From positions 13,886-77,885 of the forward strand of contig JAFYHG010000027.1 in NCBI GenBank assembly GCA_017539265.1: a stretch of DNA of 64,000 nt, given 5' to 3'. The notes beneath the pieces are model-generated. The model worked only from the letters and a program-made list of their open reading frames with translations. It was not told the origin of the DNA and did no database searches. The DNA comes from Alphaproteobacteria bacterium (lineage in GTDB: Bacteria > Pseudomonadota > Alphaproteobacteria > CAAHEQ01 > UBA3637). Made by a program: the position numbers and the translations under genes. The first letter of the stretch is position 1. Each line of letters starts with the position of its first letter. This document shows positions 4,796 through 32,673 of this stretch, one piece after another.

Positions 4796-4813
4796 AAATT
4801 ATCTATTTTGTTT

Positions 4814-6622: not shown

Positions 6623-6640
6623 CGATTTCCCTTTGATATC

Positions 6641-6669: not shown

Positions 6670-6706
6670 GAACGCGTTGTTTAACTTTTATTTGGAGGAC
6701 TAAAAA

Positions 6707-7461: not shown

Positions 7462-7476
7462 GAAAGGAGAAAAATC

Positions 7477-7671: not shown

Positions 7672-7729
7672 AGCTTTATTATCATATAGTTAATTATATA
7701 AACGGATTTTTAGAAAAGGAGACCATATT

Positions 7730-8149: not shown

Positions 8150-8164
8150 ATTAAAGGAATCCCA

Positions 8165-9475: not shown

Positions 9476-9516
9476 GTACAGAGCTAAAAGATTTATGTAA
9501 GCATTGATTATATAAG

Positions 9517-10266: not shown

Positions 10267-10305
10267 ATTTTCTTTTATTACAGAGAAGACGAATAAGTAG
10301 AACAC

Positions 10306-10887: not shown

Positions 10888-10967
10888 TTTTTATCCTTTC
10901 GTAAAAATTGAACAGTTTTATGCGGCCCAGGACTATAGAGCCGATTTTTTTCAAAGCCAAGCCCTAA

Positions 10968-12788
10968 ATGTTAAAAAATGTTATTTTTTTGAATAAAATT
11001 AAACATTTTGAAATACTTGCCTGGAATGACGTTTTCAAAAACATTGATTTTATAAGGCTATTAGGGATAATGTTAAATAATGTATGTTTTTTAACATTTT
11101 TCATTTTTCTGGACTTTTGGATGATTTTATTGTATACTGCGACCAGTTTTTTAAATTTTCATGGATTCAGTATGCGAATAAACCGTCCAAATTATTTTAG
11201 CGAGATTGACGAGCAAGATGTCCTCTTCTATGGAGAGGAAGGACGCTTTCGGAGAATATCCCTAGATTTCTGGAAAGATGTTTACCCAAATATATTGCAA
11301 GCGTACTTATCAACCAAACAACCCGAAAATGATTTTAAGGACACTTTTGTAGACCCGTCATTTTATCCGATAGGTCCAGAACATGCACTACGTTTATGCA
11401 CGAGGGTGTTTACAGATATCTTTCCTTCGTGTTTCGAAACAAATTACTCGGAACTTCCTGATAGACCTGGTAAGTTATATGAAAAGGATATAGAGCCACT
11501 TAAAGACAAAAAAGGGCTTGTTGGGGCTATTGCGAGAACATGGAACAAAATAGGCAAATATGGAGACTATCATTTTTTACAGCTCCTAGAGATTGTTAGC
11601 ACATTTAAAAATGGTATTGTAAAACTTACGGATAAACTGCCAGACCCACTATATGCTGATTTTGTAAAAGAAATACGTGCAGTCTTTTATAAGTACGCAG
11701 ATTTATTGAATAATAAAGAAATCAGAAAAGAAATTGATAAAATCGTTTTCTTAAAGCATCCGAATGCAACTAAAAAGATTAAGTCCCCAAGAGGATATCG
11801 GATAGTTAAGGCAGAATACGCCCGTTGTGAACTTATTTTTGAAAATGTGGATTTTGGTAGGAAAGAACAGGAGCTTTTCTGGAACATACTAACGATTCCA
11901 GAGGGTTTTGTTCCAATGGAAACAGCTTTTTTCCTTAATTGTAGATTTTCTGCAACCTATACATGTCCTACAAAAGTAATTCGTCCCAGGGCTTTGTTCA
12001 GATACTGCATATTTGAAAAAGAATTTGCCCCAGCTCCATATATCCAGCAATCATGGAGATTTATAAACTGTACAATAAAAAACAAATTTAATTTCAGAAA
12101 AACAGTGCTACGCAGAGGGCTTTTCTTTCATGGATGTGTGTTTGAGTCGGAAAGTTCATTCATATTTGATAATTCACGTGGCAACCGTTGGGTTCCGAAA
12201 GATTACCCATATAATAAACTTTATTTTACAGACACAATATTTGGCGGTGATTTCTCCATAATGAATACAAGTTTAAGTCATACTGAATTTGTATTGAAGA
12301 ATGTCGCATTTTTCAAAACATTCCGCTTTGATGAAGTCAGATTAAGTGATAAGTGCACTTTTGAACGTATTAGTTTTGCTTTGGGAAGTACTCCGCAAAT
12401 AATACAATGTAAACAAACTTTTGTTGAAATGCTCCAATTACACGGATATCATGCGGAACTTGATTCACTGGGATTATTAAGTAAAAATTCTAACAAAAAA
12501 AGAGCTCAACGCTTTTATACATCATGGCTTCATCCAATCGAAGCAGCCGAATTTCTTTCCAAAAGCATAAGTTGGTTAGCCAAGAAAAGACAAGCCGACA
12601 GATTAAAGAAAACAAAGACTTCTATACCATTTGTTGGGGAAAAGAAAAATATTTTATACCCCAAGACAGCCTTACAGGCATTCCGTTCACAAGATTGGAA
12701 TAAGTTAAAAGAACTCTGTAAAAAATATGGAGTTGGTGAGAAAGAAAAACCCAAATCTGCCGACATTAGCATATTTGATGTAGATTAA
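10968..12788 (+). CDS. Large hypothetical protein (start uncertain; hydrophobic N-terminus).
   Basis: Long ORF. Its last ~95 nt are duplicated downstream of the abi gene. Confidence 0.45.
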   Translation: MLKNVIFLNKIKHFEILAWNDVFKNIDFIRLLGIMLNNVCFLTFFIFLDFWMILLYTATSFLNFHGFSMRINRPNYFSEIDEQDVLFYGEEGRFRRISLDFWKDVYPNILQAYLSTKQPENDFKDTFVDPSFYPIGPEHALRLCTRVFTDIFPSCFETNYSELPDRPGKLYEKDIEPLKDKKGLVGAIARTWNKIGKYGDYHFLQLLEIVSTFKNGIVKLTDKLPDPLYADFVKEIRAVFYKYADLLNNKEIRKEIDKIVFLKHPNATKKIKSPRGYRIVKAEYARCELIFENVDFGRKEQELFWNILTIPEGFVPMETAFFLNCRFSATYTCPTKVIRPRALFRYCIFEKEFAPAPYIQQSWRFINCTIKNKFNFRKTVLRRGLFFHGCVFESESSFIFDNSRGNRWVPKDYPYNKLYFTDTIFGGDFSIMNTSLSHTEFVLKNVAFFKTFRFDEVRLSDKCTFERISFALGSTPQIIQCKQTFVEMLQLHGYHAELDSLGLLSKNSNKKRAQRFYTSWLHPIEAAEFLSKSISWLAKKRQADRLKKTKTSIPFVGEKKNILYPKTALQAFRSQDWNKLKELCKKYGVGEKEKPKSADISIFDVD

Positions 12789-12790
12789 AC
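12695..12790. repeat. Direct repeat copy 1 (96 bp), including the 3' end of the 10968-12788 gene.
   Basis: 95/96 identical to 13985-14080 by direct reading. Confidence 0.9.
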
Positions 12791-12839
12791 GGTTTATCTT
12801 ATTGAAAATAAATACGATATAAAATTAATTAAAAAAGTG

Positions 12840-12868
12840 TTGACTCATAATTTTTTTTATATTATAAT
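12840..12868 (+). promoter_or_regulatory. Consensus sigma70 promoter TTGACT-17-TATAAT upstream of the abi gene.
   Basis: TTGACT at 12840-12845, 17-nt spacer, TATAAT at 12863-12868. Confidence 0.5.
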
Positions 12869-12914
12869 ATACATAACAAGCCCTTCCCGCTAAAGGCAGA
12901 GATGTACAGCGAAT

Positions 12915-13979
12915 ATGGAAGGGCATTATTTTAAGGTTATAGAAATGCAGAGAGTCAAATTTTTTAAAGAATCAAAAACCCCTGATGAGCTTATAGAACA
13001 ACTTGTTAAACGTGGTATGGTAATTACAAATCGTGATTATGCTAAAGATATTTTATTTAAAATTAATTATTATCGTTTATCAGGATATTGGTTTAAATTT
13101 CAAAATAAATGGTTAAAGCAATTGCCAGTTCCAGAAAACGCAACCAGTGAAGAAATTGATGAACTGAATAATCAATTTATCAGACGGGTATCCTTTGAAA
13201 ATATTGTTGATATATACAGATTTGATAGTAAATTACGTTCTTTATGCATAGATGCACTGGAGAAAATAGAAATTGGAATTAGCTCTGTTCTCTGTAATCA
13301 TATGTGCCAAAAGTATGGCGGATATTGGTTTTTAAATAAACAGCTTGTGCAAAAAGTCACAAAAAAAACTAAAGAAGGAGAAAAAGTTTTATTTAATCAT
13401 GATTTATTAATGGAAGACATTGATAAGTTATTAGCAAAAAATAAACGAACAAAATGTATCAAAAATTTTCGAGTAAAATATACTGATGAATATCCTCCTT
13501 ACTGGATATTAGCTCAATTGGTAACATTTGGAACTTTATCGAAAATTTATTCTTCTTTACCCCCTGTAGATAAAAAAGAAATTGCAAAGATGCTAGGTGT
13601 AAATGATGAACTGTTATCACACAGCCTCACATTACTGTCTTATATTAGAAATATTTGTGCTCATTATGCCCGCTTATGGGATAATGATAATAGTGTTGTC
13701 CCTTTGAATATTAATTTTAATCGCATAGAACCCAACAGTATTTTTAATTATCGCTTTCATACAAATGGAAAGAATAGTGCAACATTCTTCCCAGTATTTT
13801 ATTTAATAACCTTATACTTATATATGCTTTATCCGAAATCTAAATGGTGCTCCATTGTTGAACAAAAAATTAAAGAATATGAGAAATTAACAGATTCATT
13901 GGTTTCTTTTAAGACCATGGGATTTTTAGATACGTGGAGAGAATTACCATTATTCATAAGAATGCTCAAGAATGCGTAA
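12915..13979 (+). CDS. Abi_2 family (AbiD/AbiF-like) abortive infection protein.
   Basis: N-terminus ... TPDELIEQLVKRGMVITNRDYAKDILFKINYYRLSGYWF is a classic Abi_2 start. Later, IRNICAHYARLWDN gives the R-x4-H (HEPN) motif of this family. Confidence 0.8.
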   Translation: MEGHYFKVIEMQRVKFFKESKTPDELIEQLVKRGMVITNRDYAKDILFKINYYRLSGYWFKFQNKWLKQLPVPENATSEEIDELNNQFIRRVSFENIVDIYRFDSKLRSLCIDALEKIEIGISSVLCNHMCQKYGGYWFLNKQLVQKVTKKTKEGEKVLFNHDLLMEDIDKLLAKNKRTKCIKNFRVKYTDEYPPYWILAQLVTFGTLSKIYSSLPPVDKKEIAKMLGVNDELLSHSLTLLSYIRNICAHYARLWDNDNSVVPLNINFNRIEPNSIFNYRFHTNGKNSATFFPVFYLITLYLYMLYPKSKWCSIVEQKIKEYEKLTDSLVSFKTMGFLDTWRELPLFIRMLKNA

Positions 13980-13984
13980 CTTAA

Positions 13985-14080
13985 TTGGAATAACTTAAAA
14001 GAACTCTGTAAAAAATATGGAGTTGGTGAGAAAGAAAAACCCAAATCTGCCGACATTAGCATATTTGATGTAGATTAAAC
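13985..14080. repeat. Direct repeat copy 2 (96 bp).
   Basis: Matches 12695-12790 with one mismatch. Confidence 0.9.
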
Positions 14081-14596
14081 GATTCCCTTATGTAAAATTA
14101 GGTCGAACATAATGTCCCAAGCTGTTTGTCCTTTCTTATTTTTTAAATTGGTTAAGTCTGCTCCATAGTCCAAGAAGGCATAAAGAAGTTTCTTTTTACG
14201 GTGGATGTTTTTATCAAAAAGGACTCTCATTAAAGCTGTATTGCCCCAAATGTCCTGTGTATCTAACTCCGCCCCTGAATCCACAAATAACCAGGGCACT
14301 ATGGCTTCACATTGTCCTTCAACCGCACGCATTAGAGGAGTTTCCCCGTGTTGGTTGGTCTTGTTCACATCTCCGCCCATGTTTATTAAGGCTTCAATTC
14401 TTTCCCCATCTTTAAAATAATTCATAGCGTATAAAAATGGAGTCATGCCAATCGGGGGCATAGGTCTGTTTAAGTCTGCTCCTTTCTTTACATAGTATTG
14501 TATGAGTTTCAAATTCCTTTCTTTAATGGCTTTTAATAGGTCTTCCTGTATATTCATAGTCTCTCCTTTTAAATTATTTATCCCTACTGATTCCAC
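14075..14596 (-). CDS. Ankyrin-repeat protein.
   Basis: ANK consensus stretches (GMTPFLYAMN ... GETPLMRAVEGQ ... GNTALMRVL ... GADLN). Confidence 0.7.
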   Translation of the reverse strand: MESVGINNLKGETMNIQEDLLKAIKERNLKLIQYYVKKGADLNRPMPPIGMTPFLYAMNYFKDGERIEALINMGGDVNKTNQHGETPLMRAVEGQCEAIVPWLFVDSGAELDTQDIWGNTALMRVLFDKNIHRKKKLLYAFLDYGADLTNLKNKKGQTAWDIMFDLILHKGIV

Positions 14597-15028
14597 TTAT
14601 GAATCAAAAATATTTTTAAAGAGTTGAACCAAATTCGTGTGTACCTCTCTTTGTAATAGAGGGACTTGTTTCTCACTTAAATGGAAACCATGTCGCTTCA
14701 TGCTGTCCAAAATGTAGCGAACAGTTTCTGGTTTTACTCTAACCAACATCTTCATCAAATATTCAAATTGGCTCGGTCGGTTCAGGTGTAATCCGTAGTA
14801 TTTGTATTTGAACAATAACTCCAGCATCTTGTCCCAGTTCGTCTCACAAAACTGATACACCCAAGCCAGCGGCTGGTTGTTAAAAGACTTCTGAATATCT
14901 GCCCCTTTGAGTAAAATCTCCACCATTTCCATGTCTGGATGGAATGTGCTAAACTGGCAAAGGGGTGTTTCCTCTTTCTTACAATCGGCTTTCCCCAGTA
15001 TTGTTTCCTTGATTTGTTCACTGTCCAT
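14597..15028 (-). CDS. Hypothetical protein, possibly a degenerate ankyrin (MEMVEILLKGADIQ).
   Basis: Zero-nt gap to the downstream ankyrin gene. Confidence 0.4.
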   Translation of the reverse strand: MDSEQIKETILGKADCKKEETPLCQFSTFHPDMEMVEILLKGADIQKSFNNQPLAWVYQFCETNWDKMLELLFKYKYYGLHLNRPSQFEYLMKMLVRVKPETVRYILDSMKRHGFHLSEKQVPLLQREVHTNLVQLFKNIFDS

Positions 15029-15029
15029 C

Positions 15030-15401
15030 TTAATACTCCATGTTCCAGAACAAAACTTTTCCTTGATAGTAAAATTTCCATTTTCCCCTCGGACAATCCG
15101 TAAAAGGAATATGCTGGTAGTAAATTAATCTTACCCTTTTCCTAAATGCTATTCTGGCTTTGTTGCCCTCTTTGACAGTTAGCGTAATTCCTATCAAGTC
15201 ATTGTTTAATTCTGGCTTCGTTTTGATAACACTCTCCACAAGGTCTAATAACCAATATGCCCCAGCTTTCTCACAAAATATTTTTACCCCGTCCGTGTAC
15301 TCGTATGATATGTGCTGGTTGGTGTAATAATTTTCAGTCCCCGTACAGAAATACAAAGCCTGTCTTACTTGTAATGCTCTTTCATCAACTTGGTTATCCA
15401 T
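15030..15401 (-). CDS. Hypothetical protein (123 aa).
   Basis: First gene of a tight minus-strand three-gene operon. Confidence 0.4.
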   Translation of the reverse strand: MDNQVDERALQVRQALYFCTGTENYYTNQHISYEYTDGVKIFCEKAGAYWLLDLVESVIKTKPELNNDLIGITLTVKEGNKARIAFRKRVRLIYYQHIPFTDCPRGKWKFYYQGKVLFWNMEY

Positions 15402-15653
15402 AATGTCTCCTTTCTGTTATTACAAAAAGGATTGTAACATAAAGGAACGTTTGCGTTCCCGAGGCATATGTTGTAAAGAAATTGCTCGGTTCAAATACCC
15501 GATAGCCCTTATGTATACAGCAATTTCCTTAAAAAACAAGTGCATTTTAAAAAAGTGTAAAAAAATGTAAAAAAAGGCTTGATTTTATCGTTCCTTATTT
15601 TGCATAAAGCAAACTGCCGATAAATACCCACAGATATTATAAAAGGAGCCAAA

Positions 15654-16244
15654 ATGATTTATGGGTATTGCAGATGTTCAACTGATAAGCAGACGGTATC
15701 ACATCAACACTATGAAGTTCAAAAGTTCGCAGCCACCAATGGTGTTCAAGTTGATGAATGGATTGAGGAAACCATAAGTTCAAGAAAACCACTTGCCAAA
15801 AGAAAGTTGGGTGAGTTATTAAATAATATGAAAGAAGGAGATGTTCTGATAACCCCCGAAATCTCCCGTATTGGTAGAAGCCTATTAGAAATAATGTCTA
15901 TTTTACAGACTTGTTTAGAAAAGAACTGCCAGATATGGACAATTAAAGAGAACTACCGCTTGGGTGCTGATATCCAAAGCAAGGTGCTAGCGTTTGCGTT
16001 TGGCTTAGCAGCCGAAATCGAGCGTAATCTTATTTCTCAACGCACAAAGGCAAGTTTGGAATCATTGAAAAAGAATGGTAAAAAACTCGGTCGTCCGTTT
16101 GGGGCTAAAAATAAGTCCCTGAAACTGTCCAAAAATCGCACCAGAATCAACAGTCTTCTTGCTAAAGGCTTGCCCAAGGCTCAAATTGCCCGCATTTTCG
16201 GTGTGGATAAGATGACTATGTATAGGTTCTTAAAGGGAGAATGA
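15654..16244 (+). CDS. Serine recombinase (resolvase/invertase family).
   Basis: GYCRCSTDKQ catalytic N-terminus with the serine nucleophile. C-terminal HTH (KAQIARIFGVDKMTMYRFL). Confidence 0.8.
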   Translation: MIYGYCRCSTDKQTVSHQHYEVQKFAATNGVQVDEWIEETISSRKPLAKRKLGELLNNMKEGDVLITPEISRIGRSLLEIMSILQTCLEKNCQIWTIKENYRLGADIQSKVLAFAFGLAAEIERNLISQRTKASLESLKKNGKKLGRPFGAKNKSLKLSKNRTRINSLLAKGLPKAQIARIFGVDKMTMYRFLKGE

Positions 16245-16308
16245 GTGTTTGATTCCATTATTAAATCGTTTCCGAATAAATAAAAATGTTAGGAAATAAG
16301 GAGTCTTA

Positions 16309-17158: not shown

Positions 17159-20100
17159 TTAGAACTTCCACTTAAATCCGGATTTTAAGGATGTTCGGAC
17201 TTCCTTGTCTATGTAGGACATAATCGATCCGTACAGGCTGTAATCCGACCAATCATAGTCAAACCCTGCACGAATGACCCCACGGTTATCACTCCGCTTC
17301 TCGTCTCTAAGCATAAACGTTCCGTCCATACCCTCCATCCCGACGCGCAGTTTATACGGATCCGCAAACTCGTGATAAGCCGCCACTCCTGCCGTCAATT
17401 TAATCTTCGACGTCTTCGTCAGTTCCTTATCCTTCGTCAGGTATAGTCCGATACCGCCTTCAACAGAATACGTATTCTGGCTCTTGATGTTCAGGGCATA
17501 GTCCTTATCTTCTTCATGGCCTCTCTGAGTGTAGCCCAAGATATTAAACTCCGCCGCCGGTTCCAATGTCCATTCGCCGAATGTTAATGGATAGCGGGCT
17601 TCATTCATTAAACCATAAACACGTTTCTCTATCGTTCCGTCATAGTTCTTATTATCGAACCCAGTCCGGTCATACTTACCCCGTGCATACCCGATCCGCG
17701 GTGATGTCATTAGGTTAAAGCCATGTGTTCTGTATCCGATCGGCACAACGAGTTGATACATGCTGTCATGTCTATCGTCATCATCATGGGCATTATCCGA
17801 ACGTGTGTTCATGAACGCAACACCAAGACCCACCGACCATCTGCCATCCCGTTTGTTATACAGGCTGTATCTGGCATCTGATCCATTGTCGCCACGGAAC
17901 GCCATAGGCCTTACAGATCCTGCTAATGCAAACGCTTTCTCTTTGTTATGGAAGAGTTTTTCATTCATGTCAAAGTTGAGTTCCCTCATCATTGTCATGT
18001 CTTCGAAATTAAAGCGCGAGAGCATCTCTTTACCCGTCATCTTATCCAAACTGCTGGTTAAGCTATGGACATCACCGAAGCTCTTTAACTTATTAAAGAA
18101 CGCTTCATTCTTCCCTGACGCATAGTTCCGTGTTAAGAACTCTGCCAGGCTCGCATTCTTCGTCGCCGTGTCAAACCCTCGCATCGTCATCACAACATCT
18201 TTACCGTTATCCGCTAAGCTGGCATCAAACATTGCCGACTCGGATATCAGATTTAGTTCACTTGCATCCTGGGCAATAATCGCATCAGAAAGCGTGTAGA
18301 CTTGTTCAAAACCACTTGTTTCACCGTCTACATACAATTTTCCTTTAATACTGTCCGCCGAGAAAGATCCGCCGTTAAGCAACATAATCTTTCCGTTTCG
18401 ACCGGCTAATGCATCCAGATCCAATTCTGTATCAAAATTGACATTGCCTGAATTTTTCATATTCATACTTCCGATATCGGACATTCCGCCCAATTGAGCA
18501 AAATCGGAGGCCTTTGACAAAACTCTATGCACCCCATTAAAGGTTCCCTTATTGACAAATTCTAAATTTGCTCGGGTTGCTCCCATATCTTTATAGGTCA
18601 CGGTATATGTTTTTGAATCAACTGTCGGAACGAAGAAATGTCTCCATTCTTCAATATCACCATTAATTGTTCCCGTTTTTTCATTAACCAATTTAGACGG
18701 GCCTAACACCATAACGCCTTCGGAAATAGTTCCCTCATTGATAAGTGTTCCCTTAAATAACGTTACACCGTCATTAATACTTCCCTTATTGGTAAAATAG
18801 GCACTGCCGTCCAATTGAACACTACCGACTGTTCCTTCGTTTACACCAACGATATTACCAAACGCCGAGACATCTTCAACAGAGGCAGAAGCCTTATTTG
18901 AAAAGGTAATTTGACCGTCAAATCCATAGAGAGTAACCTCTCCGTAAATGTGTCCTTCGTTTTTAACCCAAATAGGTGCCCCCACGGATATCCCGATAAC
19001 ACTAGCAGGTTGATAGGTATAGCCGCTGCTGCTTCCTATCGTTCCCGAGTTTTCAAAATTCGCACCATAGACATAAACCTCATCTACATCGAAATCATCA
19101 TCCGGATTTTTAACCTTAACCGTTGCCGAATTCTTTAAAGTCGTTTTTCCACCGCTGAGTCCAGGATTTCCTGCATATAGAACAGGGCGGTATTCCCAAT
19201 CTATCGTATCATCTGGTTCACCAAAATCTTTGATATGCTTGGCTAGCCATAGAATTTCATAGTTATTTTCATTAAAACTTGATGGCGGATTTATTTGGGA
19301 TAAATTTGCCTTTTGAAGTTTTGACGTATCATCAATAACTTGATTTGTTGTGTTCGTATAAGTTTGTCCGGCGGATACTCCTTTATCCTTCCATAAAACT
19401 CGAACACCCGTCGGTAAATTTGCCCAATTCTTTCCGGAGAGAGGTCCTGTCCATGCGGAATTGACGCATACCCCATTACTGGGTACATATCCGGCCGCAC
19501 AGGAACAAGTTGCCTCATCCACATTGCTTCCAGATAATCCGCAAGTTCCGCAATCATTTCCTTTCCAGTTACCGGAACATGAACAGGCTTGAACCGTTCC
19601 GCCTTCGGAAGTTCCCCCGTTTTGGCATGCTTGGCATGTTGTCCCATTCAAGTATTCATTTTCATTACAATTAAGAACACATACATTACCGCTGGGAATA
19701 TATCCGCCCGTACAATCGCAACTTGTTGAATCGACATGGTCTCCCGATAATTTACAGGTTCCGCAATCATCTCCTCCCCAATTACCGGAGCAACTACACG
19801 ATAAGCTTGTTCCACCGTCAGAGGTTCCCCCGTTTTGACATGGTGTACAACTTGTCCCGTCATAGTAATTATTAACCTCACAGGCCGCATAATCCGATTC
19901 TACGTTATCATTAACAACAATTCTTCCGGCATTAATCAATGTAGAACCGCTGCCCATATCAATGCCGTAACTTTTATCTTCATCCGTGTCCGAAATAGTA
20001 ATCAGCCCTCTGTTTTTAACCGTTGAGTTATCCCCAACTTTAATACCATAGGCTTTTTTATTTGCAATATTTTGCCCTGTGATTTCAATTTCACCCGAAT

Positions 20101-21661
20101 TTTCAACCAGAACATTGTTCTCACCAAAGATACCGTATAAGTCCCCTAACCCGGCAACACTAATCGTACCGGAATTAGTAATATGACTTCCCGTTGTACC
20201 GTAAATTCCGTAAGCTTCCGGTCCCTTTGCCGTTACATCTATTTTACCGGAATTTATAATAGTTCCCCCATTTGAATATAGACCATAGGCCTTCCCGTCA
20301 CCATTTGAAACAATTGTGATTGTACTTTGGTAAACGTCACCGTTTTCATTGGACGTAATACCGTCAGATTCGTTATACATACCATAACTGTTCCCATTTG
20401 TTTCATTTGTTACGGAAATATTTCCGGTAGCAAGCAGACCTTCATAAGAAGAATCCAGTGTTCCCGTTTGATAAGCGTTGTATATATCCCCGTTTCCATA
20501 AATACCATATGCATCGGATACATTATTCAAATCAGTATCTAAATTATTTATAATTTCAATATCTCCTGAAATCGGAGAAGAATCAGAAACCCTTTTACCT
20601 GTTGCCAATGCGTTGTAAACGGTATTTCCCCACATACCATAAACTTTTCCTGTTCCCTTATTTGTTATCCGAATTGTCCCAAATGAACCGCCACCCGGAC
20701 AATTATCACAAATATAACCATTATAAATTTCCGGTGATGTTTCTTCTCCGTGCATACCATAAACATTTCCGTCTCCCGTATTTTTAATCAGAATGTTTCC
20801 ATAGGCATATTCCGCACCATTACATGATTCGTCATAAGTATAGGCATTATACATATAACTCTGACCGCTCATTCCGTATACATCCCCATTCCCCGTATTT
20901 GTGATATCAATGTTGATTGAGGATGCATCACTTTGATCCATATAAGCATATGCATTATACATAGTTTTATTTTTGGAATTGCTCATTCCATACACATCAT
21001 CGTCATTATCGTTTACAATGACAATTTGTTTATTATTAACATCGCCCGTCACGCAATTACCATTATCATCAAAAATACCCGATTCGCAAACTGGTTCCGG
21101 CGGTAAGCAATCACCATTCGCATCTTTGCCATAGGCACATTTTTTCTCTTTTTTCTTGCTTCCGCCACCGCCGCCACCACCGGCAGCCAAAGCAATTCCT
21201 CCACCGATAACGGCTACCGCTCCAACTCCGATCCCGACCATAGCCGCCGTGGATAAACCTGTTTCTGTTGCAACAGCACCTCCCGAAGCTGCCGTTGCCC
21301 CTGCCGCGGCATTCATTTCTTGTGCCCACGCGGTATATCCCTCATTAAAGGCTTTAATCTGTTCCGGCGGTATCTTTTGCGTACAGGGGTGTTTCACATT
21401 TGCACCGGCAACGCGCAACGCGTTAAAACTCTTATAATCATTATTATAAACTGCACGACATAGGTTCGTATTTCCGTCCCGACCAATTGAGTCAACTTTC
21501 TTTCCCAAAGATTTCAAGGCCCTTACATTTCCATTCTTGGCATAATTGTAAATCTGACTCATCGTCAGCGGCGCTTCCACTGCAGCCAAGACTGGTGTTG
21601 TCAAAATTGTATTGGATGTAAACATCCCGGCAACTACACATAACCCTATAATTTTACGCAT
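17159..21661 (-). CDS. Large autotransporter-type outer membrane protein (1500 aa) with two tandem EGF-like Cys-rich modules in the passenger.
   Basis: Signal peptide (MRKIIGLCVVAGMFT ... VLAA). Many x-Y-G-[MI] passenger repeats. Tandem ~60-aa Cys-rich modules (CQNGGTS.GGT ... CSCSGNW.G.DCGTC.LSG ... C.C..GY.PS.G.CV). C-terminal ~280 aa with alternating beta-strand pattern ending FKWKF (terminal aromatic). Confidence 0.8.
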   Translation of the reverse strand: MRKIIGLCVVAGMFTSNTILTTPVLAAVEAPLTMSQIYNYAKNGNVRALKSLGKKVDSIGRDGNTNLCRAVYNNDYKSFNALRVAGANVKHPCTQKIPPEQIKAFNEGYTAWAQEMNAAAGATAASGGAVATETGLSTAAMVGIGVGAVAVIGGGIALAAGGGGGGGSKKKEKKCAYGKDANGDCLPPEPVCESGIFDDNGNCVTGDVNNKQIVIVNDNDDDVYGMSNSKNKTMYNAYAYMDQSDASSINIDITNTGNGDVYGMSGQSYMYNAYTYDESCNGAEYAYGNILIKNTGDGNVYGMHGEETSPEIYNGYICDNCPGGGSFGTIRITNKGTGKVYGMWGNTVYNALATGKRVSDSSPISGDIEIINNLDTDLNNVSDAYGIYGNGDIYNAYQTGTLDSSYEGLLATGNISVTNETNGNSYGMYNESDGITSNENGDVYQSTITIVSNGDGKAYGLYSNGGTIINSGKIDVTAKGPEAYGIYGTTGSHITNSGTISVAGLGDLYGIFGENNVLVENSGEIEITGQNIANKKAYGIKVGDNSTVKNRGLITISDTDEDKSYGIDMGSGSTLINAGRIVVNDNVESDYAACEVNNYYDGTSCTPCQNGGTSDGGTSLSCSCSGNWGGDDCGTCKLSGDHVDSTSCDCTGGYIPSGNVCVLNCNENEYLNGTTCQACQNGGTSEGGTVQACSCSGNWKGNDCGTCGLSGSNVDEATCSCAAGYVPSNGVCVNSAWTGPLSGKNWANLPTGVRVLWKDKGVSAGQTYTNTTNQVIDDTSKLQKANLSQINPPSSFNENNYEILWLAKHIKDFGEPDDTIDWEYRPVLYAGNPGLSGGKTTLKNSATVKVKNPDDDFDVDEVYVYGANFENSGTIGSSSGYTYQPASVIGISVGAPIWVKNEGHIYGEVTLYGFDGQITFSNKASASVEDVSAFGNIVGVNEGTVGSVQLDGSAYFTNKGSINDGVTLFKGTLINEGTISEGVMVLGPSKLVNEKTGTINGDIEEWRHFFVPTVDSKTYTVTYKDMGATRANLEFVNKGTFNGVHRVLSKASDFAQLGGMSDIGSMNMKNSGNVNFDTELDLDALAGRNGKIMLLNGGSFSADSIKGKLYVDGETSGFEQVYTLSDAIIAQDASELNLISESAMFDASLADNGKDVVMTMRGFDTATKNASLAEFLTRNYASGKNEAFFNKLKSFGDVHSLTSSLDKMTGKEMLSRFNFEDMTMMRELNFDMNEKLFHNKEKAFALAGSVRPMAFRGDNGSDARYSLYNKRDGRWSVGLGVAFMNTRSDNAHDDDDRHDSMYQLVVPIGYRTHGFNLMTSPRIGYARGKYDRTGFDNKNYDGTIEKRVYGLMNEARYPLTFGEWTLEPAAEFNILGYTQRGHEEDKDYALNIKSQNTYSVEGGIGLYLTKDKELTKTSKIKLTAGVAAYHEFADPYKLRVGMEGMDGTFMLRDEKRSDNRGVIRAGFDYDWSDYSLYGSIMSYIDKEVRTSLKSGFKWKF

Positions 21662-21802
21662 ATTATATCCCTTTCTTTATCAAGCAATTTATACCATATC
21701 ACTTTCCACTATACATAAAAATTTATGAATTGCAAATAAAAAAATTTCTGGATATAAATTAAATCTTGTGGTATACTATATTTATGGTAGAAAGGATTTT
21801 TC

Positions 21803-24800
21803 ATGAATAGATTAGAAAACACAAAAAGTATTATCACAGCGCTCCCCGAGTTAATTGAACGGGACAAAAGTCTTCCGCAACCGTTAAAAGAATCTCAATT
21901 ATCGGTTTTGGATGCCTATATGTCCGATATTGAGGGGCATCAGAGCGGTATTTTTAATTTGGCTACCGGCTTCGGAAAAACACGGATGATGTCCACCCTT
22001 ATGGAAGCGTATTTACAGGCCAATCCGAACGGTCGTGTTGTCGTTGTTGTTCCCGCCACGGATTTAATCGAAGATGCTACGGGAAACGGTGTTTTAAAAT
22101 CCTTTAGAGAACACCATGCTTTGTTTAATTCAACCTCTCCGCTCAGCATCGGGGCCTATTACGGTTTTTCCAAAAATACGGACAGTCAGGTTACAGTAAC
22201 AACCTATAATTCATTAGATAAGTTACAAGAAAATATACCCGTTGAAGATGTTGGTTTGTTATTACTGGATGAAGCCCATCACGGTATATCGGACGCCAGG
22301 ATGGAAATAATCAGAAAATTTGAAAATGCGGCACAATACGGTATGACAGCTACTCCACGGTATGATAAAAATCGTGATTTAAGAAGACTATTAGGTGCTA
22401 CGATTGCGGATATCCCTATATCGGCCGCCATACAGGAAGGTGATTTGGTCGGCTGCACAAACGTCTTACTGGTTTCAAATTTAGAGGTTGACTTGTCGGA
22501 AGTCCGAAAAAACAGCCAAGGCGATTATGACGAGGAAGACTATTACAGGGCTCTATTCAAAGCCCTTGGGGCCAGTGAAATAAATACCGGAAATAGAGAA
22601 GGATGGCAGGAAGCGCATAGACGTATTGCACAAAATGTGGCGCAATTTTACGAAAGGATGTTCAATGGGCAAAAATGTATGATTAACTGTCGTTCCCAAA
22701 AGGAAGCATTGATTCAAGCTTATGAACTAAATCAATATTTTGGCAGAACCGTAGCCAAAACATATACCAGTGATTATTCTGATCCCGCGATTTTGAAAGA
22801 GTTTGTGGAAGGGGACCTCCCCATTATCTGTCAGGTCGGAAAATTGGCAGAAGGGTTTGATTTTCCCGGACTTTATTATTGCATTAATTACCCGACATGT
22901 TCCCCGGTCAAAGAAACACAATTGGGCGGGCGTTGCTTAAGAAAATATAGCGAAGATGAGTTTAAAGAAGCCATTGTCGTTGATATTGCCTTTAAGCATC
23001 CCAAATGTGAAAATCTGTTTGATGCCATTCAACAAAACGGTCAGGTTTTGTTTAAGGATATTATGGGGGCACCGGCTCTTCAACCCCTTACTCCACCCAA
23101 AGATGGAAAAGGAAAAGGAGATAAAGGGAAAGGTTTACCCAGAGACATAAGAGAATACGATGGTATCCAGCTTCCCGCTTTCACCATCAGATCAAACCCG
23201 GAAGAATTAAAACGCCTGATGGCCGAAGCAGAAGAAATTAAAAGAAAGCGTGGCATTCCTCTTATTTCCGAAGGAATGGTTGCCGAAGAAGAGTTTCTTG
23301 AAAAATATGGCCTTGCCCGTTCTTGGGGATTAGATCTTTTGGTTAAAGGGAAATATGATACTTTCCATGATCCCGAAACAGGAAAAGAAGAACACTTTGT
23401 AAGCATGGTGGATACGGGAAGCTGTATTCGTATGGCGCTGACGAATAATCCACATGGAATTAAGTTATTTGAAGAAAAATATCATGATATCTTGTTCGCC
23501 CCCGATATAAAACAGGGAATGCTGACCGCACGAGAATTAGCCCATAGATATAATATCAGTTTGGTAAAGGCTAAAGACTTATTGGAGGAATGGAAAGATG
23601 CCAGGTATCACCATCCCAAAACGAACGAAAGTGAACCGATGGTTTATTTTGTGAAAGATAAAGGCATACCTTGCCTGGTCCTTACAAACGATCCTTGGGG
23701 TATCAGTATATTTGAAGAAAACGCCCATCTTTTGGCTTCCCATATGCGCCCGGGTATGTTGACCCCAAGTGATGTCAAACGGAAATATTTAACTACGCCC
23801 GAAGACACCAGAAGAATCTTTGAAGAATTGGAATTTAAAACATTTTATGATCCCATATCCGGAACGGATAAACCTTTTTGTGAATGGGCAACAAATGTTA
23901 ACGGAAAAAGATGTTTGTATTTGACCGATAATCCCATCGGTATAAAGGAATTTGAAAAATTATATCGCAAAGAAATTGCATTACCGATGACCCCGGGTAT
24001 GTTGGGGGCAGAACAACTGGCTGAAAGATACGGATTATCCGAAAAAATATGTAAAAAAATGTTGGAGGAACTACGGGATGAAACCTTTTACACTTCAACA
24101 GGGGAAGAAGAATTATTGGTCAGTTATGTTAAGGATCCCAACAATATCGATAAACCTAAATTTTTGGCTTTAACGACGGATCCGGCTGGGATAAAACTAT
24201 TTGAAAAATTAAAAAGAGACACCCTATTTATGCCTGAAATACAACCGGGGATGAAAACTGTCCCAGAATTAAGAGAAAAATGCGCAAATCTCATTTTAAC
24301 GAATCTTTTCTTTCAAGAGCTATTTGACAAATACGAAGATAGAACCTACCTTGATCCAGTAACAGGGGAAGAAAAAAAGTTTATCAAAACCGTCAAGAAA
24401 GACGGAGAATTTGTGCAAGTCTTAACGAATGATCCTTTGGGAATAAAGATATTTGAAGATGAAAATAAAAGGTTCCTTCATGCCCAAAAATACTGGCGCG
24501 GATGGTCAACCGCCGATGATATGTCCTGGCGTTATAAGATCCCGGAAGATGTTGCCCAGCAACTCTTGGAAAAATATGAAGGGCGCACCTTTGTTCACCC
24601 TGAAACACAAGAAACATTGCCTGTGGTGGCATTGATGTACAATAAAGGCAGATTTTTCTTGGCTCTGACACCATATAGGGCCGGTCGGGAAATTTTTGAA
24701 AAAGAAAATAGTGATATCATAACTATTAGGGAAAGGACACCGTATTCCCCCGGACAACAAGGGTCCAGAATGCATCAAATGTTAGCACAAAGCACGCCTT

Positions 24801-24877
24801 TCGCGACACAAAAACCGTCAGAAGCACAACCGGATTACTCTGTTTTGAAAGCGATTAAAGACGAGCCGCACCAATAG
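21803..24877 (+). CDS. SF2 (ResIII/DEAH) helicase fused to six ~80-aa tandem repeats.
   Basis: ATGFGKT (motif I), LLLDEAHH (DEAH), MTATPR (motif III), QLGGRCLR (motif VI). From about aa 486-1000 there are six units of [FY]xDPxTGxE ... L.LTxxPxGIK.FE ... PGMLT ... LEEL. Confidence 0.7.
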   Translation: MNRLENTKSIITALPELIERDKSLPQPLKESQLSVLDAYMSDIEGHQSGIFNLATGFGKTRMMSTLMEAYLQANPNGRVVVVVPATDLIEDATGNGVLKSFREHHALFNSTSPLSIGAYYGFSKNTDSQVTVTTYNSLDKLQENIPVEDVGLLLLDEAHHGISDARMEIIRKFENAAQYGMTATPRYDKNRDLRRLLGATIADIPISAAIQEGDLVGCTNVLLVSNLEVDLSEVRKNSQGDYDEEDYYRALFKALGASEINTGNREGWQEAHRRIAQNVAQFYERMFNGQKCMINCRSQKEALIQAYELNQYFGRTVAKTYTSDYSDPAILKEFVEGDLPIICQVGKLAEGFDFPGLYYCINYPTCSPVKETQLGGRCLRKYSEDEFKEAIVVDIAFKHPKCENLFDAIQQNGQVLFKDIMGAPALQPLTPPKDGKGKGDKGKGLPRDIREYDGIQLPAFTIRSNPEELKRLMAEAEEIKRKRGIPLISEGMVAEEEFLEKYGLARSWGLDLLVKGKYDTFHDPETGKEEHFVSMVDTGSCIRMALTNNPHGIKLFEEKYHDILFAPDIKQGMLTARELAHRYNISLVKAKDLLEEWKDARYHHPKTNESEPMVYFVKDKGIPCLVLTNDPWGISIFEENAHLLASHMRPGMLTPSDVKRKYLTTPEDTRRIFEELEFKTFYDPISGTDKPFCEWATNVNGKRCLYLTDNPIGIKEFEKLYRKEIALPMTPGMLGAEQLAERYGLSEKICKKMLEELRDETFYTSTGEEELLVSYVKDPNNIDKPKFLALTTDPAGIKLFEKLKRDTLFMPEIQPGMKTVPELREKCANLILTNLFFQELFDKYEDRTYLDPVTGEEKKFIKTVKKDGEFVQVLTNDPLGIKIFEDENKRFLHAQKYWRGWSTADDMSWRYKIPEDVAQQLLEKYEGRTFVHPETQETLPVVALMYNKGRFFLALTPYRAGREIFEKENSDIITIRERTPYSPGQQGSRMHQMLAQSTPFATQKPSEAQPDYSVLKAIKDEPHQ

Positions 24878-24900: not shown

Positions 24901-25653
24901 TTACCTTTGACGTTTCCTTAAATAATTGGATAGGATATTGGCACTGGCTTCCCCGAAGAGATTATTTGTATCCTCGGGTTGTAATTTTGCCAAATAATCG
25001 GATAGCCCCGTGTTTGAAATACGGATGGCTTTTCCTTCATCACATAATCCATCACACCAACCCAAAACTTCTTTGGGCGTGATAACATTTCCGAATTGAC
25101 TCTGTAATCCTGCTTTCCCCAAAATCGGCCTCAGGCTGTGTGTGGCACAATTATTCCCCAAAAAGCAATAATCATCAACCCGAAGCGTTTCCATCATCAT
25201 CCTTTGCTTTAGTGAAAAAGGACTTAATCCCATTTTTTTCGGGAACAATAAAAATATAAACGGTTTTGTGCTTTGTTTTGCCCGAACGATGCGCCGCAAA
25301 GTCACACCAATCGACTCTTTATTCCGGCCGTTATACCATGTTTTAAAAATATCAATCATTCCGCGGAAAAATCCTTTTTCCCTTAACCCCGTAAAAAAGT
25401 CTGATACGGTATCAATACAAACACCTTTATAGACCGAGGCTATGTGCCCTATCGGATAGGTACACCTTCTCCGGCAAATAAGGTCTATTAATTGAAATGG
25501 ATGGTAAATAAATAGGAATAAAGGCTTTTCCGAAAAAGGGTACTTTTCAATATCCGTAACGGGTGTGCGCGTCCGTTGGGGAAATAAAAGCGTTGAATTC
25601 CCCAATAAATTAGGAATAGCCTCCAACAATCTGGTTAATCTGTTGTTAATCAT
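24901..25653 (-). CDS. Hypothetical protein (250 aa).
   Basis: ORF only. No family recognised. Confidence 0.4.
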   Translation of the reverse strand: MINNRLTRLLEAIPNLLGNSTLLFPQRTRTPVTDIEKYPFSEKPLFLFIYHPFQLIDLICRRRCTYPIGHIASVYKGVCIDTVSDFFTGLREKGFFRGMIDIFKTWYNGRNKESIGVTLRRIVRAKQSTKPFIFLLFPKKMGLSPFSLKQRMMMETLRVDDYCFLGNNCATHSLRPILGKAGLQSQFGNVITPKEVLGWCDGLCDEGKAIRISNTGLSDYLAKLQPEDTNNLFGEASANILSNYLRKRQR

Positions 25654-25761: not shown

Positions 25762-26625
25762 TTATTGTTTTACGAACAAATCTTTCATTCGTTTCCAAAT
25801 ACTTTCGGGTTTTGATTTTTGAATGAGTGGGCTTAAAAAGGCCGATAATTTATCCGGCAAATCTTTTAATGTATGAAACGTTTGAATTTGTCCGTCGCGC
25901 ACCAAAGATACATCCCCGTTTTCTTCAGACACAACTAGAACCAAAGCATCTGTATTCTCACTCATCCCGATGGCCGCCCGATGGCGTGTTCCATACTTCC
26001 AATTAAGCCTGGCATCCCGCGTTAACGGCAAAATTACTCCCGCCGAAACAACTTTATCCTTTTTAATCACAACGGCTCCATCATGAAGCGGCGTATTTAC
26101 AAAAAAGAGGTTAATCAATAATTCCGTAGATAAATCCGCATTCAATATCACTCCATCCGTCGTAGCGGCGGAAACAGGTTCATGATTTTCAAAAACGATT
26201 AAGGCCCCTGTCTGATGTTCTTGCCAATACTCAATACTCTGGGTTAAAATTTCCACCAACCGGTTATTCATTTGCTTTTTCTTTGTTTGGGAAATCATAC
26301 TGAGGCTATTGCCGATTCTGGCCATCCATCGACGCAATTCCGGTTGAAAAATCACCACAAAAGAGAGCATAATCAATAGCAACAAATTCCTTAACATCGC
26401 ACTTAAAATCCGTAGGTGCAGCAAAGTAAAAATTTCGGCCGTAATCCAAATCACAACCAAAAAGCAGGTAATCCCCTTGACCGTTTTTTCCACCGGCGAA
26501 TTTTTAATTAATTTCATATAGAAAAAATAGAGTAGCGCAATAATCAGCGTTACTTGAAACAGAACACTTGCCCCCGTTAAACCGGTCGACCCCAATATGC
26601 TTTTCAGATACTCCATCAACGACAC
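25762..26625 (-). CDS. cdaA: Membrane-anchored diadenylate cyclase (CdaA/DacA-like; three TM helices + DAC domain).
   Basis: Three N-terminal hydrophobic helices. DAC motifs LHDGAVVI and GTRHRAAIG. Confidence 0.75.
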   Translation of the reverse strand: MSLMEYLKSILGSTGLTGASVLFQVTLIIALLYFFYMKLIKNSPVEKTVKGITCFLVVIWITAEIFTLLHLRILSAMLRNLLLLIMLSFVVIFQPELRRWMARIGNSLSMISQTKKKQMNNRLVEILTQSIEYWQEHQTGALIVFENHEPVSAATTDGVILNADLSTELLINLFFVNTPLHDGAVVIKKDKVVSAGVILPLTRDARLNWKYGTRHRAAIGMSENTDALVLVVSEENGDVSLVRDGQIQTFHTLKDLPDKLSAFLSPLIQKSKPESIWKRMKDLFVKQ

Positions 26626-30929: not shown

Positions 30930-32519
30930 TCATTCTAATGTATTCAAACTTTCTTGATACATCTCTTGGACGGCTTTTTCAAAGGATTTCGTAAACTTCT
31001 CCATATTAAACAGGTCAGCTGTCTTCGCTTTCTCCGTCACTTTTTCACGTAATTTTTTCAGAGCCCCGGGGGTTGTGCATAGTTCAACCACCTTTTCCTC
31101 ATATTCCTTAATATCTTTGCAAATCATTTCTGGTACATCCAAAGCGGTTAACAAAGCCCCACCGACACGACTTGCATGTGTTGTACCCGGACATGTGATA
31201 ACAGGACATCCCATAAATAATGCCTCCATTCCGGTCGTATGAGCGTTATATAGCTCCGTATCTAACAACAAATCTGCAATTTTATATCGCGCTAAATGTT
31301 CGTGATGTGGCAACAATTTTGCATGAACAATTCGCTCTCTATCAATATGGCGTTTTTCAAACTCTGCGCTAACATTATCTTCGAAAACCTTAGATGTGCT
31401 ATAAAACCATAGAACCGCCTTTGGTACCCGTTTTAAAATCCGTGCCCACAGGTCAAAATAATTTGGGGTAAATTTATATGAATTATTAAAGCAACACAAC
31501 ACGATTGCATCTGATTTAAATCCCATGTGTTTTTTGAGGGGGGTATACTGCGGTAATTCAATATTATGATCTATCAGCCAGCTACTGGGTTCAAGGTATT
31601 TTAACTTTTCATAGTAATATTTATCTTCACCGGGTAAAACGCTGTATTTGTCAACAAAATGATAATCAATTCCGGGAACTCCTCCCAACGTACCAATACA
31701 ACCTAAAAAAGTGCCTTGCGCTGGTGCTGGTTGATAGGTCATGATTCCCAACCGATTATACATAGTAAATCCATTCATATCAATCAGAACATCAATTTTA
31801 TCCTTAAATATCCGTTCAGCAGCATCTTTATCGCTTAATTTATCCAAGGGGGCGATATGGATATCCTTTATACCATAAATACGTTTACTGGGATAAGTTT
31901 CCAATTGGGGATAAATATCATACAGGTATACATCAAATTTTTGACGATCAATTCGTTCAAAAAACTCCCCAATAACATATCCCGTCGGATGTACACGACA
32001 ATCCGCGCATAAAAAGCCTAATTTTAACCGCTGAGGGCTGGGTTTTCTATCCTCAAAATGGAAGGGAGATATTTGTGGACGCAACTCCGATGTTTCACTC
32101 ACAAAGGCACGCGTAGCCTTATATAGTTGTTCGTCGGTCACCGGCAAAAAAGACCTAATGTCAAAAGGGTTGATACGGCCGCTATACAATACCTCATCTT
32201 GTAAAAAATAATCGACATCACGATTCAATGTATCCCAAAATAAGAATTTTTTCTCCAGTTTCAAAAATTGTGAACGGATAATTAAAGGTGTATCATCCCC
32301 ATTTAATTTAACAATACGTTGATAAGCCTTATAAGCCTTTGTTGTTTGTCCCAAATCAGAATACAAAGAGGCCAATTGTGATAAAACCTCTACAGATGCC
32401 GGGAATATTTTTAATGCCTGTATATAGCATGTCAAAGCCGCGCCATTTAACTTTTTTTCTAAAAAAGCATTCCCTTGTTTATACCACCGTTCAAATTCAT
32501 CCGTATTAATTTCTACCAT
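30930..32519 (-). CDS. TPR-repeat + GT41 (O-GlcNAc transferase/SPINDLY-like) glycosyltransferase.
   Basis: N-terminal TPRs. C-terminal GT41-like block (CCFNNSYKFTP ... KAVLW ... GMEALFMGCPVITCPG). Start moved to the ATG at 32519 because the longer ORF overlaps a tRNA. Confidence 0.65.
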   Translation of the reverse strand: MVEINTDEFERWYKQGNAFLEKKLNGAALTCYIQALKIFPASVEVLSQLASLYSDLGQTTKAYKAYQRIVKLNGDDTPLIIRSQFLKLEKKFLFWDTLNRDVDYFLQDEVLYSGRINPFDIRSFLPVTDEQLYKATRAFVSETSELRPQISPFHFEDRKPSPQRLKLGFLCADCRVHPTGYVIGEFFERIDRQKFDVYLYDIYPQLETYPSKRIYGIKDIHIAPLDKLSDKDAAERIFKDKIDVLIDMNGFTMYNRLGIMTYQPAPAQGTFLGCIGTLGGVPGIDYHFVDKYSVLPGEDKYYYEKLKYLEPSSWLIDHNIELPQYTPLKKHMGFKSDAIVLCCFNNSYKFTPNYFDLWARILKRVPKAVLWFYSTSKVFEDNVSAEFEKRHIDRERIVHAKLLPHHEHLARYKIADLLLDTELYNAHTTGMEALFMGCPVITCPGTTHASRVGGALLTALDVPEMICKDIKEYEEKVVELCTTPGALKKLREKVTEKAKTADLFNMEKFTKSFEKAVQEMYQESLNTLE

Positions 32520-32588
32520 TCTGTATCCCAAACCTGCGCATAATAAACATGCGTATAGAATAACACATGTAAAGCCATAATTTAAAAT

Positions 32589-32673
32589 TGGTGCGGTTAA
32601 GAAGACTCGAACTTCCACGGGTTGCCCCACAAGCACCTCAAGCTTGAGCGTCTACCAATTCCGCCATAACCGC
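32589..32673 (-). tRNA. tRNA-Leu (anticodon GAG), type II with long variable arm.
   Basis: Reverse complement reads GCGGTTATGGCGGAATTGGTAGACGCT CAAGC TTGAGGT GCTTG ... GTTCGAGTC ... TAACCGCACCA. Anticodon stem CAAGC/GCTTG, loop TTGAGGT, anticodon GAG. 85 nt with encoded CCA. Confidence 0.8.

Follow-up and report, generated by a model that had tools for sequence, protein, structure and literature searches.

An SF2 helicase of gut Alphaproteobacteria with a C-terminal array of six previously unclassified ~80-aa units

Introduction

The ResIII-type (PF04851) motors of helicase superfamily 2 (SF2), among them RadD, archaeal XPB and HsdR, are composed of two RecA-like domains with motifs I, II (DEAH), III and VI, and these enzymes have no C-terminal repeat array. 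Repeated modules at helicase C-termini are known in the form of the helicase-associated (HA) domain (PF03457), which is all-helical; going by the title of a 2013 paper of Mills et al., listed among the references of PMC12191111, this domain reportedly binds DNA. The gene described here lies at nt 21803–24877 of a 64,000-nt stretch of alphaproteobacterial DNA (contig JAFYHG010000027.1, positions 13,886 to 77,885; hereafter the window, i.e., the whole stretch analysed) and encodes a motor of the same type, with the same domains and motifs, that continues into six tandem copies of a ~80-aa unit. This unit is a previously unclassified, lineage-restricted and rare conserved domain family. The gene is:

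21803–24877, + strand: complete open reading frame (ORF) with ATG start, 1024 aa, encoding the SF2 helicase, the six-unit repeat array and a disordered tail

The window protein matches RadD over ~400 motor residues with 15–19% identity; the RadD-specific C-terminal domain is replaced by the repeat array, and no RadD zinc finger was found, since aa 400–484 contain a single Cys. With HsdR there is no match at the family level (NCBIfam EcoAI R, 37.2 bits vs. a cutoff of 550; hsdR, 14.1 vs. 284), the window protein has no nuclease domain, and no hsdM/hsdS (methylase/specificity) genes are located nearby. The similarity of the motor to XPB is one of fold, together with weak similarity of sequence, and a Bax1-like partner gene is absent here. 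Among the defence systems of PADLOC-DB only generic motor matches were obtained, including those to motors of type I restriction endonucleases (REases), and none at the family level; the PbeA match (50.9 bits, 2.4e-14) covers profile positions 265–634 of 672, i.e., the motor only, and the Pbe partner genes (PbeBCD) are not among conserved neighbours in the nine loci compared.

Likewise, the array differs from the repeats described at equivalent positions. The HA domain is absent from the Pfam hits of the window protein and from the 25 most frequent families of 79 family units scanned, and the window unit is alpha+beta, whereas HA domains are all-helical. INT_rpt (PF14882), a different, W-rich repeat family ('GWPSNP…W.GW.DFLGKE'), was not detected by Pfam in the window protein, although INT_rpt arrays occupy the equivalent C-terminal position on three distantly homologous motor cores from Gammaproteobacteria and Patescibacteria MAGs (L015, L016, L018).

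Helicase motor

The N-terminal part of the protein has the features of a ResIII-type SF2 helicase/translocase, namely two RecA-like domains with motifs I (GxGKT), II (DExH), III (TAT) and VI (QxxGRxxR), and both the ORF and its complete SF2 core stand as the initial annotation had given them. The parts of this region are as follows (conservation refers to 34 homologs):

21884–23092, + strand: SF2 motor core, aa 28–430 (Pfam; phrog_16; Foldseek)
within 21884–23092, + strand: RecA1 (ResIII), aa 28–186 (Pfam ResIII, E=1.7e-23)
within 21884–23092, + strand: helical insertion, about aa 225–286
within 21884–23092, + strand: RecA2 (Helicase_C-like), aa 288–380 (Helicase_C 19.5 bits, below the cutoff of 23.5)
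21962–21982, + strand: motif I (Walker A) ATGFGKT, aa 54–60 (T55, G58, K59 and T60 invariant)
22268–22282, + strand: motif II DEAHH, aa 156–160 (DEAH, 156–159; D156, E157 and H159 invariant)
22346–22357, + strand: motif III TATP, aa 182–185 (T184 invariant; T182, A183 and P185 conserved in at least 90%)
22919–22942, + strand: motif VI QLGGRCLR, aa 373–380 (Q373, R377 and R380 invariant)
23093–23254, + strand: basic linker, aa 431–484, a disordered G/K-rich loop (435–445) and then a conserved strand and helix FTIRSNPEELKRLMAEAEEI (460–479) (AlphaFold2, AF2; family consensus)

Since the key residues of motifs I, II, III and VI are invariant in 34 family members, the ATPase is, judging from the sequence, very probably active. 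RecA2 is weak by sequence yet matched structurally by Foldseek. The best curated profile for the core is phrog_16 'DNA helicase' (9.8e-48), and in a Foldseek search the full-length model matched RadD (3.6e-15), archaeal XPB (4e-14) and EcoR124I HsdR (3e-13), followed by FANCM, Hef, CSB and TFIIH XPB, all of the motor matches having 13–21% identity over ~400 residues. By sequence, the PDB contained only weak matches, namely XPBII and a type I R subunit. The core thus falls among DNA-translocase/repair-type SF2 enzymes, outside every characterised family. The linker that connects it to the array has a net charge of +4 and an isoelectric point (pI) of 9.7; its family consensus contains the motif F.I.S..EEL..L..EA, and in the AF2 model the predicted local distance difference test score (pLDDT) is below 50 at 435–445, followed by a helix at 466–483.

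Repeat array

The six units announced in the initial annotation, along with their motifs [FY]xDPxTGxE, LTxxPxGIKxFE and PGMLT, proved to be real. They were scored with a hidden Markov model (HMM) built solely from units of other proteins, from which the window protein and its closest ortholog (P0001) were excluded to avoid circularity:

23255–23497, + strand: repeat unit 1, aa 485–565 (43.4 bits, E=1.2e-15; same topology in the AF2 model)
23498–23734, + strand: repeat unit 2, aa 566–644 (61.0 bits, E=4e-21; the unit that was modelled alone)
23735–23977, + strand: repeat unit 3, aa 645–725 (50.1 bits, E=1e-17)
23978–24229, + strand: repeat unit 4, aa 726–809 (45.1 bits, E=3.5e-16)
24230–24481, + strand: repeat unit 5, aa 810–893 (49.0 bits, E=2.3e-17)
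24482–24727, + strand: repeat unit 6, aa 894–975 (48.6 bits, E=3e-17)
24728–24874, + strand: disordered Q/P/S-rich C-terminal tail, aa 976–1024 (49 aa; pLDDT 30–35)

Compared with these 43–61 bits, the top domain score in 200 shuffled arrays was 4.2 bits. The units are 75–84 aa long and share 24–41% pairwise identity within the window protein (23–39% in the comparison across the family), and their conserved positions are mostly core residues, with G-M-x-T, P-L-V-E-x-V-K and A-L-[HT]-E-x-P in addition. In the nucleotide sequence, the repeat can be recognised only in a core of 42 nt, with 62–76% identity and a spacing of 240–252 nt; as there are no near-identical DNA repeats, the copies are old and unable to mislead an assembler. 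A six-frame search of the whole window revealed no additional copies.

That the fusion is a sequencing or assembly artefact, a possibility raised together with its discovery, was rejected: in addition to the absence of near-identical DNA repeats, the same ORF is found on independent contigs, and the architecture is kept in more than 25 homologs. Metagenome contigs from independent assemblies encode a 1024-aa protein identical to this one (L001 and L002; ENA, 41.6 kb; Logan, 10.9 kb; three contigs were read).

Predicted fold of the repeat unit

Unit 2 was modelled alone with AF2 and an alignment of the 79 family units, which resulted in a pLDDT of 94.6 and a predicted TM-score (pTM) of 0.82. 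The modelled topology consists of a short strand (GMLT), helix, turn, helix, a 3–4-stranded antiparallel beta meander and a closing helix, and it appears six times in the full-length model. According to this model the unit is probably a variant of the winged-helix fold. When it was compared with the PDB by Foldseek, every match was a winged-helix protein (MarR-family, SmtB/CzrA/CadC, ScpB, TFE-alpha, RepE), and comparison with viral models (BFVD) gave small proteins with a helix-turn-helix (HTH) and a wing, of antirepressor, excisionase, PrtN and Cox type, these matches being weak (E>=0.05).

The sequence searches point to the same fold class. Among PDB sequences the unit profile had only weak matches, all to winged helix-turn-helix (wHTH) proteins (eS25, GntR-type, ZitR/MarR, Z-alpha), and the faint precomputed Pfam matches of two family members (P0005 and P0028) are winged-helix families. 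The 79 units, scanned singly against Pfam, gave mostly sub-threshold matches to HTH_28, HTH_23, HTH_10, HTH_29, HTH_24, HTH_11, IclR, Rrf2, MarR and HTH_17; no wHTH family exceeded its gathering threshold, the best E being 9e-4 to 5e-2, with at most 8 of the 79 units per family.

The unit is like the wHTH domains of MarR, ArsR/SmtB and excisionase/HTH_17 in its predicted helix-turn-helix followed by a beta-hairpin wing, and in the short strand before the first helix. It differs from them in that it is without the canonical first helix, has an extended 3–4-strand sheet and an extra C-terminal helix, and is strung head to tail, with as many as eight units in one array. SelB has consecutive winged-helix domains (WH1-4), and the Foldseek matches ScpB and RepE likewise use several such domains to grip nucleic acid or a partner; these proteins, however, have two to four non-identical winged-helix domains and no helicase motor, and no sequence relationship to the window protein.

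Family distribution

Whether the repeat is a known common domain can be answered at two levels: its fold belongs to a common class, the winged-helix one, while its family is new and very rare. The unit is not represented by any model of Pfam, NCBIfam, PHROGs or PADLOC, no description of the repeat or the architecture was found in literature searches, and the database name of the family members is only 'MAG: DEAD/DEAH box helicase family protein [Alphaproteobacteria bacterium]', where MAG stands for metagenome-assembled genome. When the unit profile was run exhaustively with HMMER against 1.84 billion representatives of 50%-identity clusters, 27 matches were obtained at E<=1e-3, of which about 20 are real; the repeat is present in other proteins, both fused to helicases and in repeat-only form. 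The latter, motor-less proteins include P0006 and P0009 (8 copies each), P0011 (5), P0013 (3), P0017, P0018 and P0022.

The remaining matches were excluded, as P0010, P0016, P0019, P0021, P0023 and P0025–27 match only the first ~35–55 profile positions, i.e., the helix-turn-helix part, and the match of P0024 is one 24-residue stretch. These were judged to be unrelated repeat proteins, mostly HTH-like.

With the motor as the sole query, 17 tier-1 homologs with 43–47% core identity were identified, all of which carry 1–6 copies of the window unit directly after the motor. In tier-2 homologs (30–35% identity) ~72-aa repeats of the form 'KTDEWLTA.EL…KIEKR.SG..TPLCLHRDALDEFA' are present, which are homologous, shortened versions of the unit (profile-profile hhalign: probability 97%, E=1e-10). 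More distant motor homologs (27–32% identity) belong to Patescibacteria and Gammaproteobacteria MAGs.

In a GTDB-wide scan relatives were recovered with the family alignment, whereas the window protein alone gave no match as a query. As for the window itself, its Ffh protein is 100% identical to an NCBI protein of an 'Alphaproteobacteria bacterium' MAG. The tier-1 relatives come from gut MAGs, from yak rectum (RGIG9879) and SIG60, and the tier-2 relatives from rumen RUG bins and Candidatus Enterousia, which belongs to Rs-D84, an order of gut Alphaproteobacteria with genomes that are mostly smaller than 1 Mbp (PMC12306168). The array was absent from phage records, the 96 that were found holding only core homologs with 24–26% identity, and plasmid records gave no match to it.

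Evolution of the array

The closest ortholog, P0001, is 75% identical to the window protein overall and begins with the same N-terminus, MNRLENTK. Each of the six window units is 69–82% identical to the unit at the same position of P0001 and only 23–40% identical to other units (the motor, 80%), which implies that purifying selection acts on each of the six units separately in this sub-lineage. In orthologs other than P0001 no positional correspondence of units was found. Across lineages the unit copy number ranges from 1 to 8, and the units are near-identical within P0004, P0012 and P0014 (70–88% identity); thus, the arrays have been expanded or homogenised independently in different lineages.

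Distant motor homologs carry other C-terminal arrays:

L015, 583–3186; L016, 9662–11920; L018, 599–2782: Pfam INT_rpt arrays
L019, 8565–11231: unclassified ~85-aa tandem unit
L013, 251–2473; L023, 9971–12169: repeats of other lengths

It follows that the combination of an SF2 motor with a C-terminal array of small modules is already known, and that the window module itself is new. One ResIII motor clade has repeatedly acquired differing arrays of small modules at its C-terminus (the window unit, its shortened version, INT_rpt and others); this repeated acquisition points to a general, unstudied route for targeting SF2 motors, and array swapping on the clade may be a general phenomenon.

The tails that close the arrays are clade-specific, and no universal C-terminal tail motif was found across the family; the tail of the window protein is 69% identical to that of P0001. 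A basic tail, '…SPTL(R/Q).RLKAGS..GKPKAP..RK..TPE[ILM]', is common to P0005, P0006, P0012, P0033 and P0047, which belong to one sub-clade and include both helicase-fused and repeat-only proteins, and P0014 ends with a divergent version of it. Tier-2 proteins share other tails, 'GTKVV.AM…PD(N/D)Q(Y/H)'. In one locus (L039, 3490–7045) the gene immediately downstream of that for the repeat-only P0009 (706 aa) encodes 481 aa, as many as P0011 has.

Genomic context of the gene

The helicase gene is preceded by a putative promoter and a GAAAGGA sequence that resembles a Shine-Dalgarno ribosome-binding site (RBS), 7 nt upstream of the ATG. The candidate promoter lies inside the 141-nt divergent intergenic region 5' of the gene:

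21749–21777, + strand: putative sigma-70-like promoter candidate with an extended -10 (TGGATA-17-TATACT, TG before the -10), from a consensus scan only

An all-vs-all BLASTP comparison of the ORFs within ±8 kb in nine distinct loci revealed no conserved neighbour gene; the only recurring neighbours were ParC and an autotransporter, each shared by two loci. Because no neighbour is conserved and the gene has its own candidate promoter and RBS, it is a stand-alone gene, and it is chromosomally encoded. In other loci the gene is placed beside UvrC/ParC or beside genes of glycogen metabolism, and the repeat-only genes are likewise located among housekeeping genes.

In the window the gene is flanked on one side by a strain-variable gene of a large surface protein (17159–21661) and on the other by an unclassified 250-aa gene. 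The independent contigs are 99.8–99.99% identical to the window from nt 21636 onward and vary upstream of this point; since the synteny between the window and L001 begins at 21636, the helicase gene is on the strain-conserved side. A mobile/defence-like island occupies 1–16.3 kb of the window, ~5.5 kb away from the helicase gene and not contiguous with it.

Proposed function and its alternatives

The explanation that fits best, with a probability of about one half, is that the protein is a ResIII-type DNA translocase tethered to nucleic acid by a multivalent winged-helix-like array. The motor, with its intact catalytic motifs, would use ATP to translocate on or unwind DNA, and the array would act as a multivalent tether or targeting device that holds the motor on DNA or another polymeric ligand, by contacts that would be several, weak and similar to one another. 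The cellular process served may be repair, recombination, replication restart or transcription-coupled remodelling. Multivalency is suggested because the copy number varies freely, some arrays are homogenised, and unrelated repeats replace the units on homologous motors; the HA domain of other helicases sets a precedent. A nucleic-acid-binding role is plausible because the predicted fold is winged-helix-like. The initial annotation had offered a nucleic-acid-binding effector or an anti-phage sensor, and of these proposals only the binding of nucleic acid is supported here, as plausible.

Several points weigh against this explanation. Binding of nucleic acid by the units is a prediction, and winged-helix domains often mediate protein-protein contacts, too. 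The PDB fold matches are weak (best E=0.025, TM-score 0.47–0.51, root mean square deviation ~5 Å), hence the winged-helix assignment is a resemblance of fold class, with homology not demonstrated. The window protein array is acidic (net charge -15, pI 5.4), unusual for a protein that binds DNA, whereas basic arrays are found in the orthologs P0003, P0008, P0009 and P0020. Within the unit, variability is highest in the putative recognition helix (20% vs. 33% identity between paralogous units), conserved basic positions are few (R5 and K53), and in the full-length AF2 model (pLDDT 82.3) a pTM of 0.53 leaves the domain-to-domain geometry uncertain.

The acidity of the array and the poor conservation of the 'recognition helix' surface would be better accommodated if the array were a protein-protein scaffold, not binding nucleic acid itself, that recruits the motor to a partner or filament such as RNA polymerase, SSB or a nucleoid protein. 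The Foldseek matches to ScpB and TFE-alpha, whose winged helices bind proteins, and the existence of motor-less repeat-only proteins agree with such a role. Nevertheless, no conserved neighbour gene points to a partner, distant homologs substitute units of INT_rpt, a repeat that Pfam names after integrases, and the orthologous arrays vary widely in charge, which argues against a single conserved protein interface. A scaffold is considered rather unlikely, although it is the main rival of the tether.

It is less probable still that the gene is a single-gene anti-phage defence or sensor helicase, in which a fast-evolving array would recognise phage DNA or proteins and the motor would then act on the invader. 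The distance of only ~5.5 kb to the mobile/defence-like island (with a TnsA-like ResIII helicase, a PIF1 helicase, a WYL regulator, Abi_2 and a resolvase), the weak PADLOC matches to PbeA (2.4e-14) and type I REase motors, the rapid turnover of array copy number and unit sequence between lineages, and a gene context that varies between species are all consistent with defence. Yet, the PADLOC matches are limited to the generic SF2 core, with none at the family level; neither a nuclease nor any other effector domain was found with Pfam and NCBIfam, nor was a conserved partner gene. In other genomes the neighbours are housekeeping genes (ParC/UvrC, glycogen metabolism), and the variation between independent samples is located upstream of nt 21636, the sequence from this point on being conserved at 99.8–99.99%. 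Moreover, the motor and the units are under similar purifying selection in the comparison with P0001, and a homolog is present in a MAG of Ca. Enterousia, a genus reported to have genomes below ~1 Mbp.

A further idea, for which the chances appear low, is that the unit is a new, fast-evolving modular recognition domain, whose arrays would give the helicase motor a tunable, multivalent target specificity. If this were true, the individual units might recognise features of DNA, or nucleic acid that is foreign or modified, somewhat in the manner of other modular repeat arrays, the motor-less repeat-only paralogs would be free-standing binders of the same targets, and programmable nucleic-acid-binding arrays would be an invention of one small clade of gut Alphaproteobacteria, which includes a MAG of Ca. 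Enterousia with its reportedly reduced genomes.

That a phage or another mobile element left the gene behind or carries it as cargo, as a helicase for replication or recombination, is very unlikely. The top curated match of the core is indeed the phrog_16 profile, core homologs occur in 96 phage records, and the top BFVD matches of the unit are phage proteins of antirepressor/excisionase type; against this, the phage homologs are only 24–26% identical, in the core alone and with no array in any of them, no plasmid matches the array, no phage structural or replication genes flank the gene in the nine loci, and the BFVD matches are weak.

Finally, a secreted effector that acts on a eukaryotic host or protist partner, with the disordered C-terminal tail as secretion signal, is purely speculative and barely credible, for although the window encodes ankyrin-repeat and large surface proteins and some members, motor-less ones included, share a basic tail (…RLKAGS..GKPKAP..RK..TPEI), neither the window nor related loci showed a secretion system, the tails are not conserved in the family and that of the window protein is not basic, and a 115-kDa helicase with a fully conserved ATPase would be an unusual effector.

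Regardless of which function applies, the finding defines an unannotated domain family, and in uncultured gut Alphaproteobacteria it defines a helicase architecture that is conserved. Should nucleic acid be bound by the units, as in the proposed tethered translocase, they would be compact modules of 80 aa, modelled with confidence, that protein engineering could possibly exploit; otherwise, the result still cleanly improves on the annotation 'DEAD/DEAH box helicase family protein'.

Other features of the window

The island at 1–16300 contains the following features:

578–3265: ResIII helicase fused to a TnsA-like endonuclease domain
3275–4795: PIF1-like helicase, immediately after 578–3265
5598–6545, - strand: WYL-WCX regulator
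8165–9475: DUF2130
10306–10887, - strand: short ORF of the phage integrase family
12915–13979: Abi_2
14075–14596, - strand: ankyrin-repeat protein
15654–16244: serine resolvase

The initial annotation had regarded the repeat-bearing helicase as a paralog-like relative of the island helicase at 578–3265. This paralogy was rejected, as the latter is a different ResIII helicase with a TnsA-like endonuclease domain, and BLASTP between the two gave a best E of 0.2, with only generic motif I/II residues aligned. Together with the gene that follows it, the island helicase forms a two-helicase pair (578–3265 and 3275–4795) that looks like a candidate defence or transposon module.

The surface protein upstream of the helicase gene (17159–21661, - strand; 1500 aa) has no Pfam match; besides a Gly-rich stretch, it contains numerous repeats of the 'G(D/N)VYGM' type and EGF-like ones rich in Cys (CSCSGNW.G.DCGTC). 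The protein varies between strains: the L001 allele is 78% identical over 128 aa (aa 1080–1205, where the partial L001 ORF stops), and in the repeat-rich region upstream of this part only 25–30%. The synteny break between the window and L001 at nt 21636 lies inside the 5' end of this gene. Autotransporters also flank the helicase gene in two further loci (L005/L006 and L010).

Downstream, the 250-aa ORF (24901–25653, - strand) is convergent with the helicase gene, with a gap of 23 nt, and has no Pfam or NCBIfam match; on L001 and L002, contigs of the same strain, it is likewise located next to the helicase gene, and it is not found near the helicase homologs of other species. The next gene (25762–26625, - strand) encodes a CdaA-type diadenylate cyclase, with a DAC domain (2.4e-40) and the CdaA N-terminal transmembrane domain, and is followed by a GtrII-like glucosyltransferase and then a two-component system.

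Two phosphoethanolamine transferases are encoded farther downstream. One (58586–60475, + strand) is CptA-like (152 bits, below the cutoff), and the other (61710–63371, - strand) is EptA/MCR-related, with 602 bits for P_eth_NH2_trans (cutoff 500) and 583 for the EptA equivalog (below 660); its product is a member of the lipid A phosphoethanolamine transferases, the family of the MCR enzymes that confer polymyxin resistance. A tRNA-Leu(GAG) gene (32589–32673, - strand) overlaps by ~48 nt the 5' end of a TPR/GT41 glycosyltransferase ORF with a GTG start (30930–32636, - strand); because of this overlap, and as the gene call in L001 has 566 aa compared with 568 aa here, the true start of the ORF is probably downstream of the called GTG.

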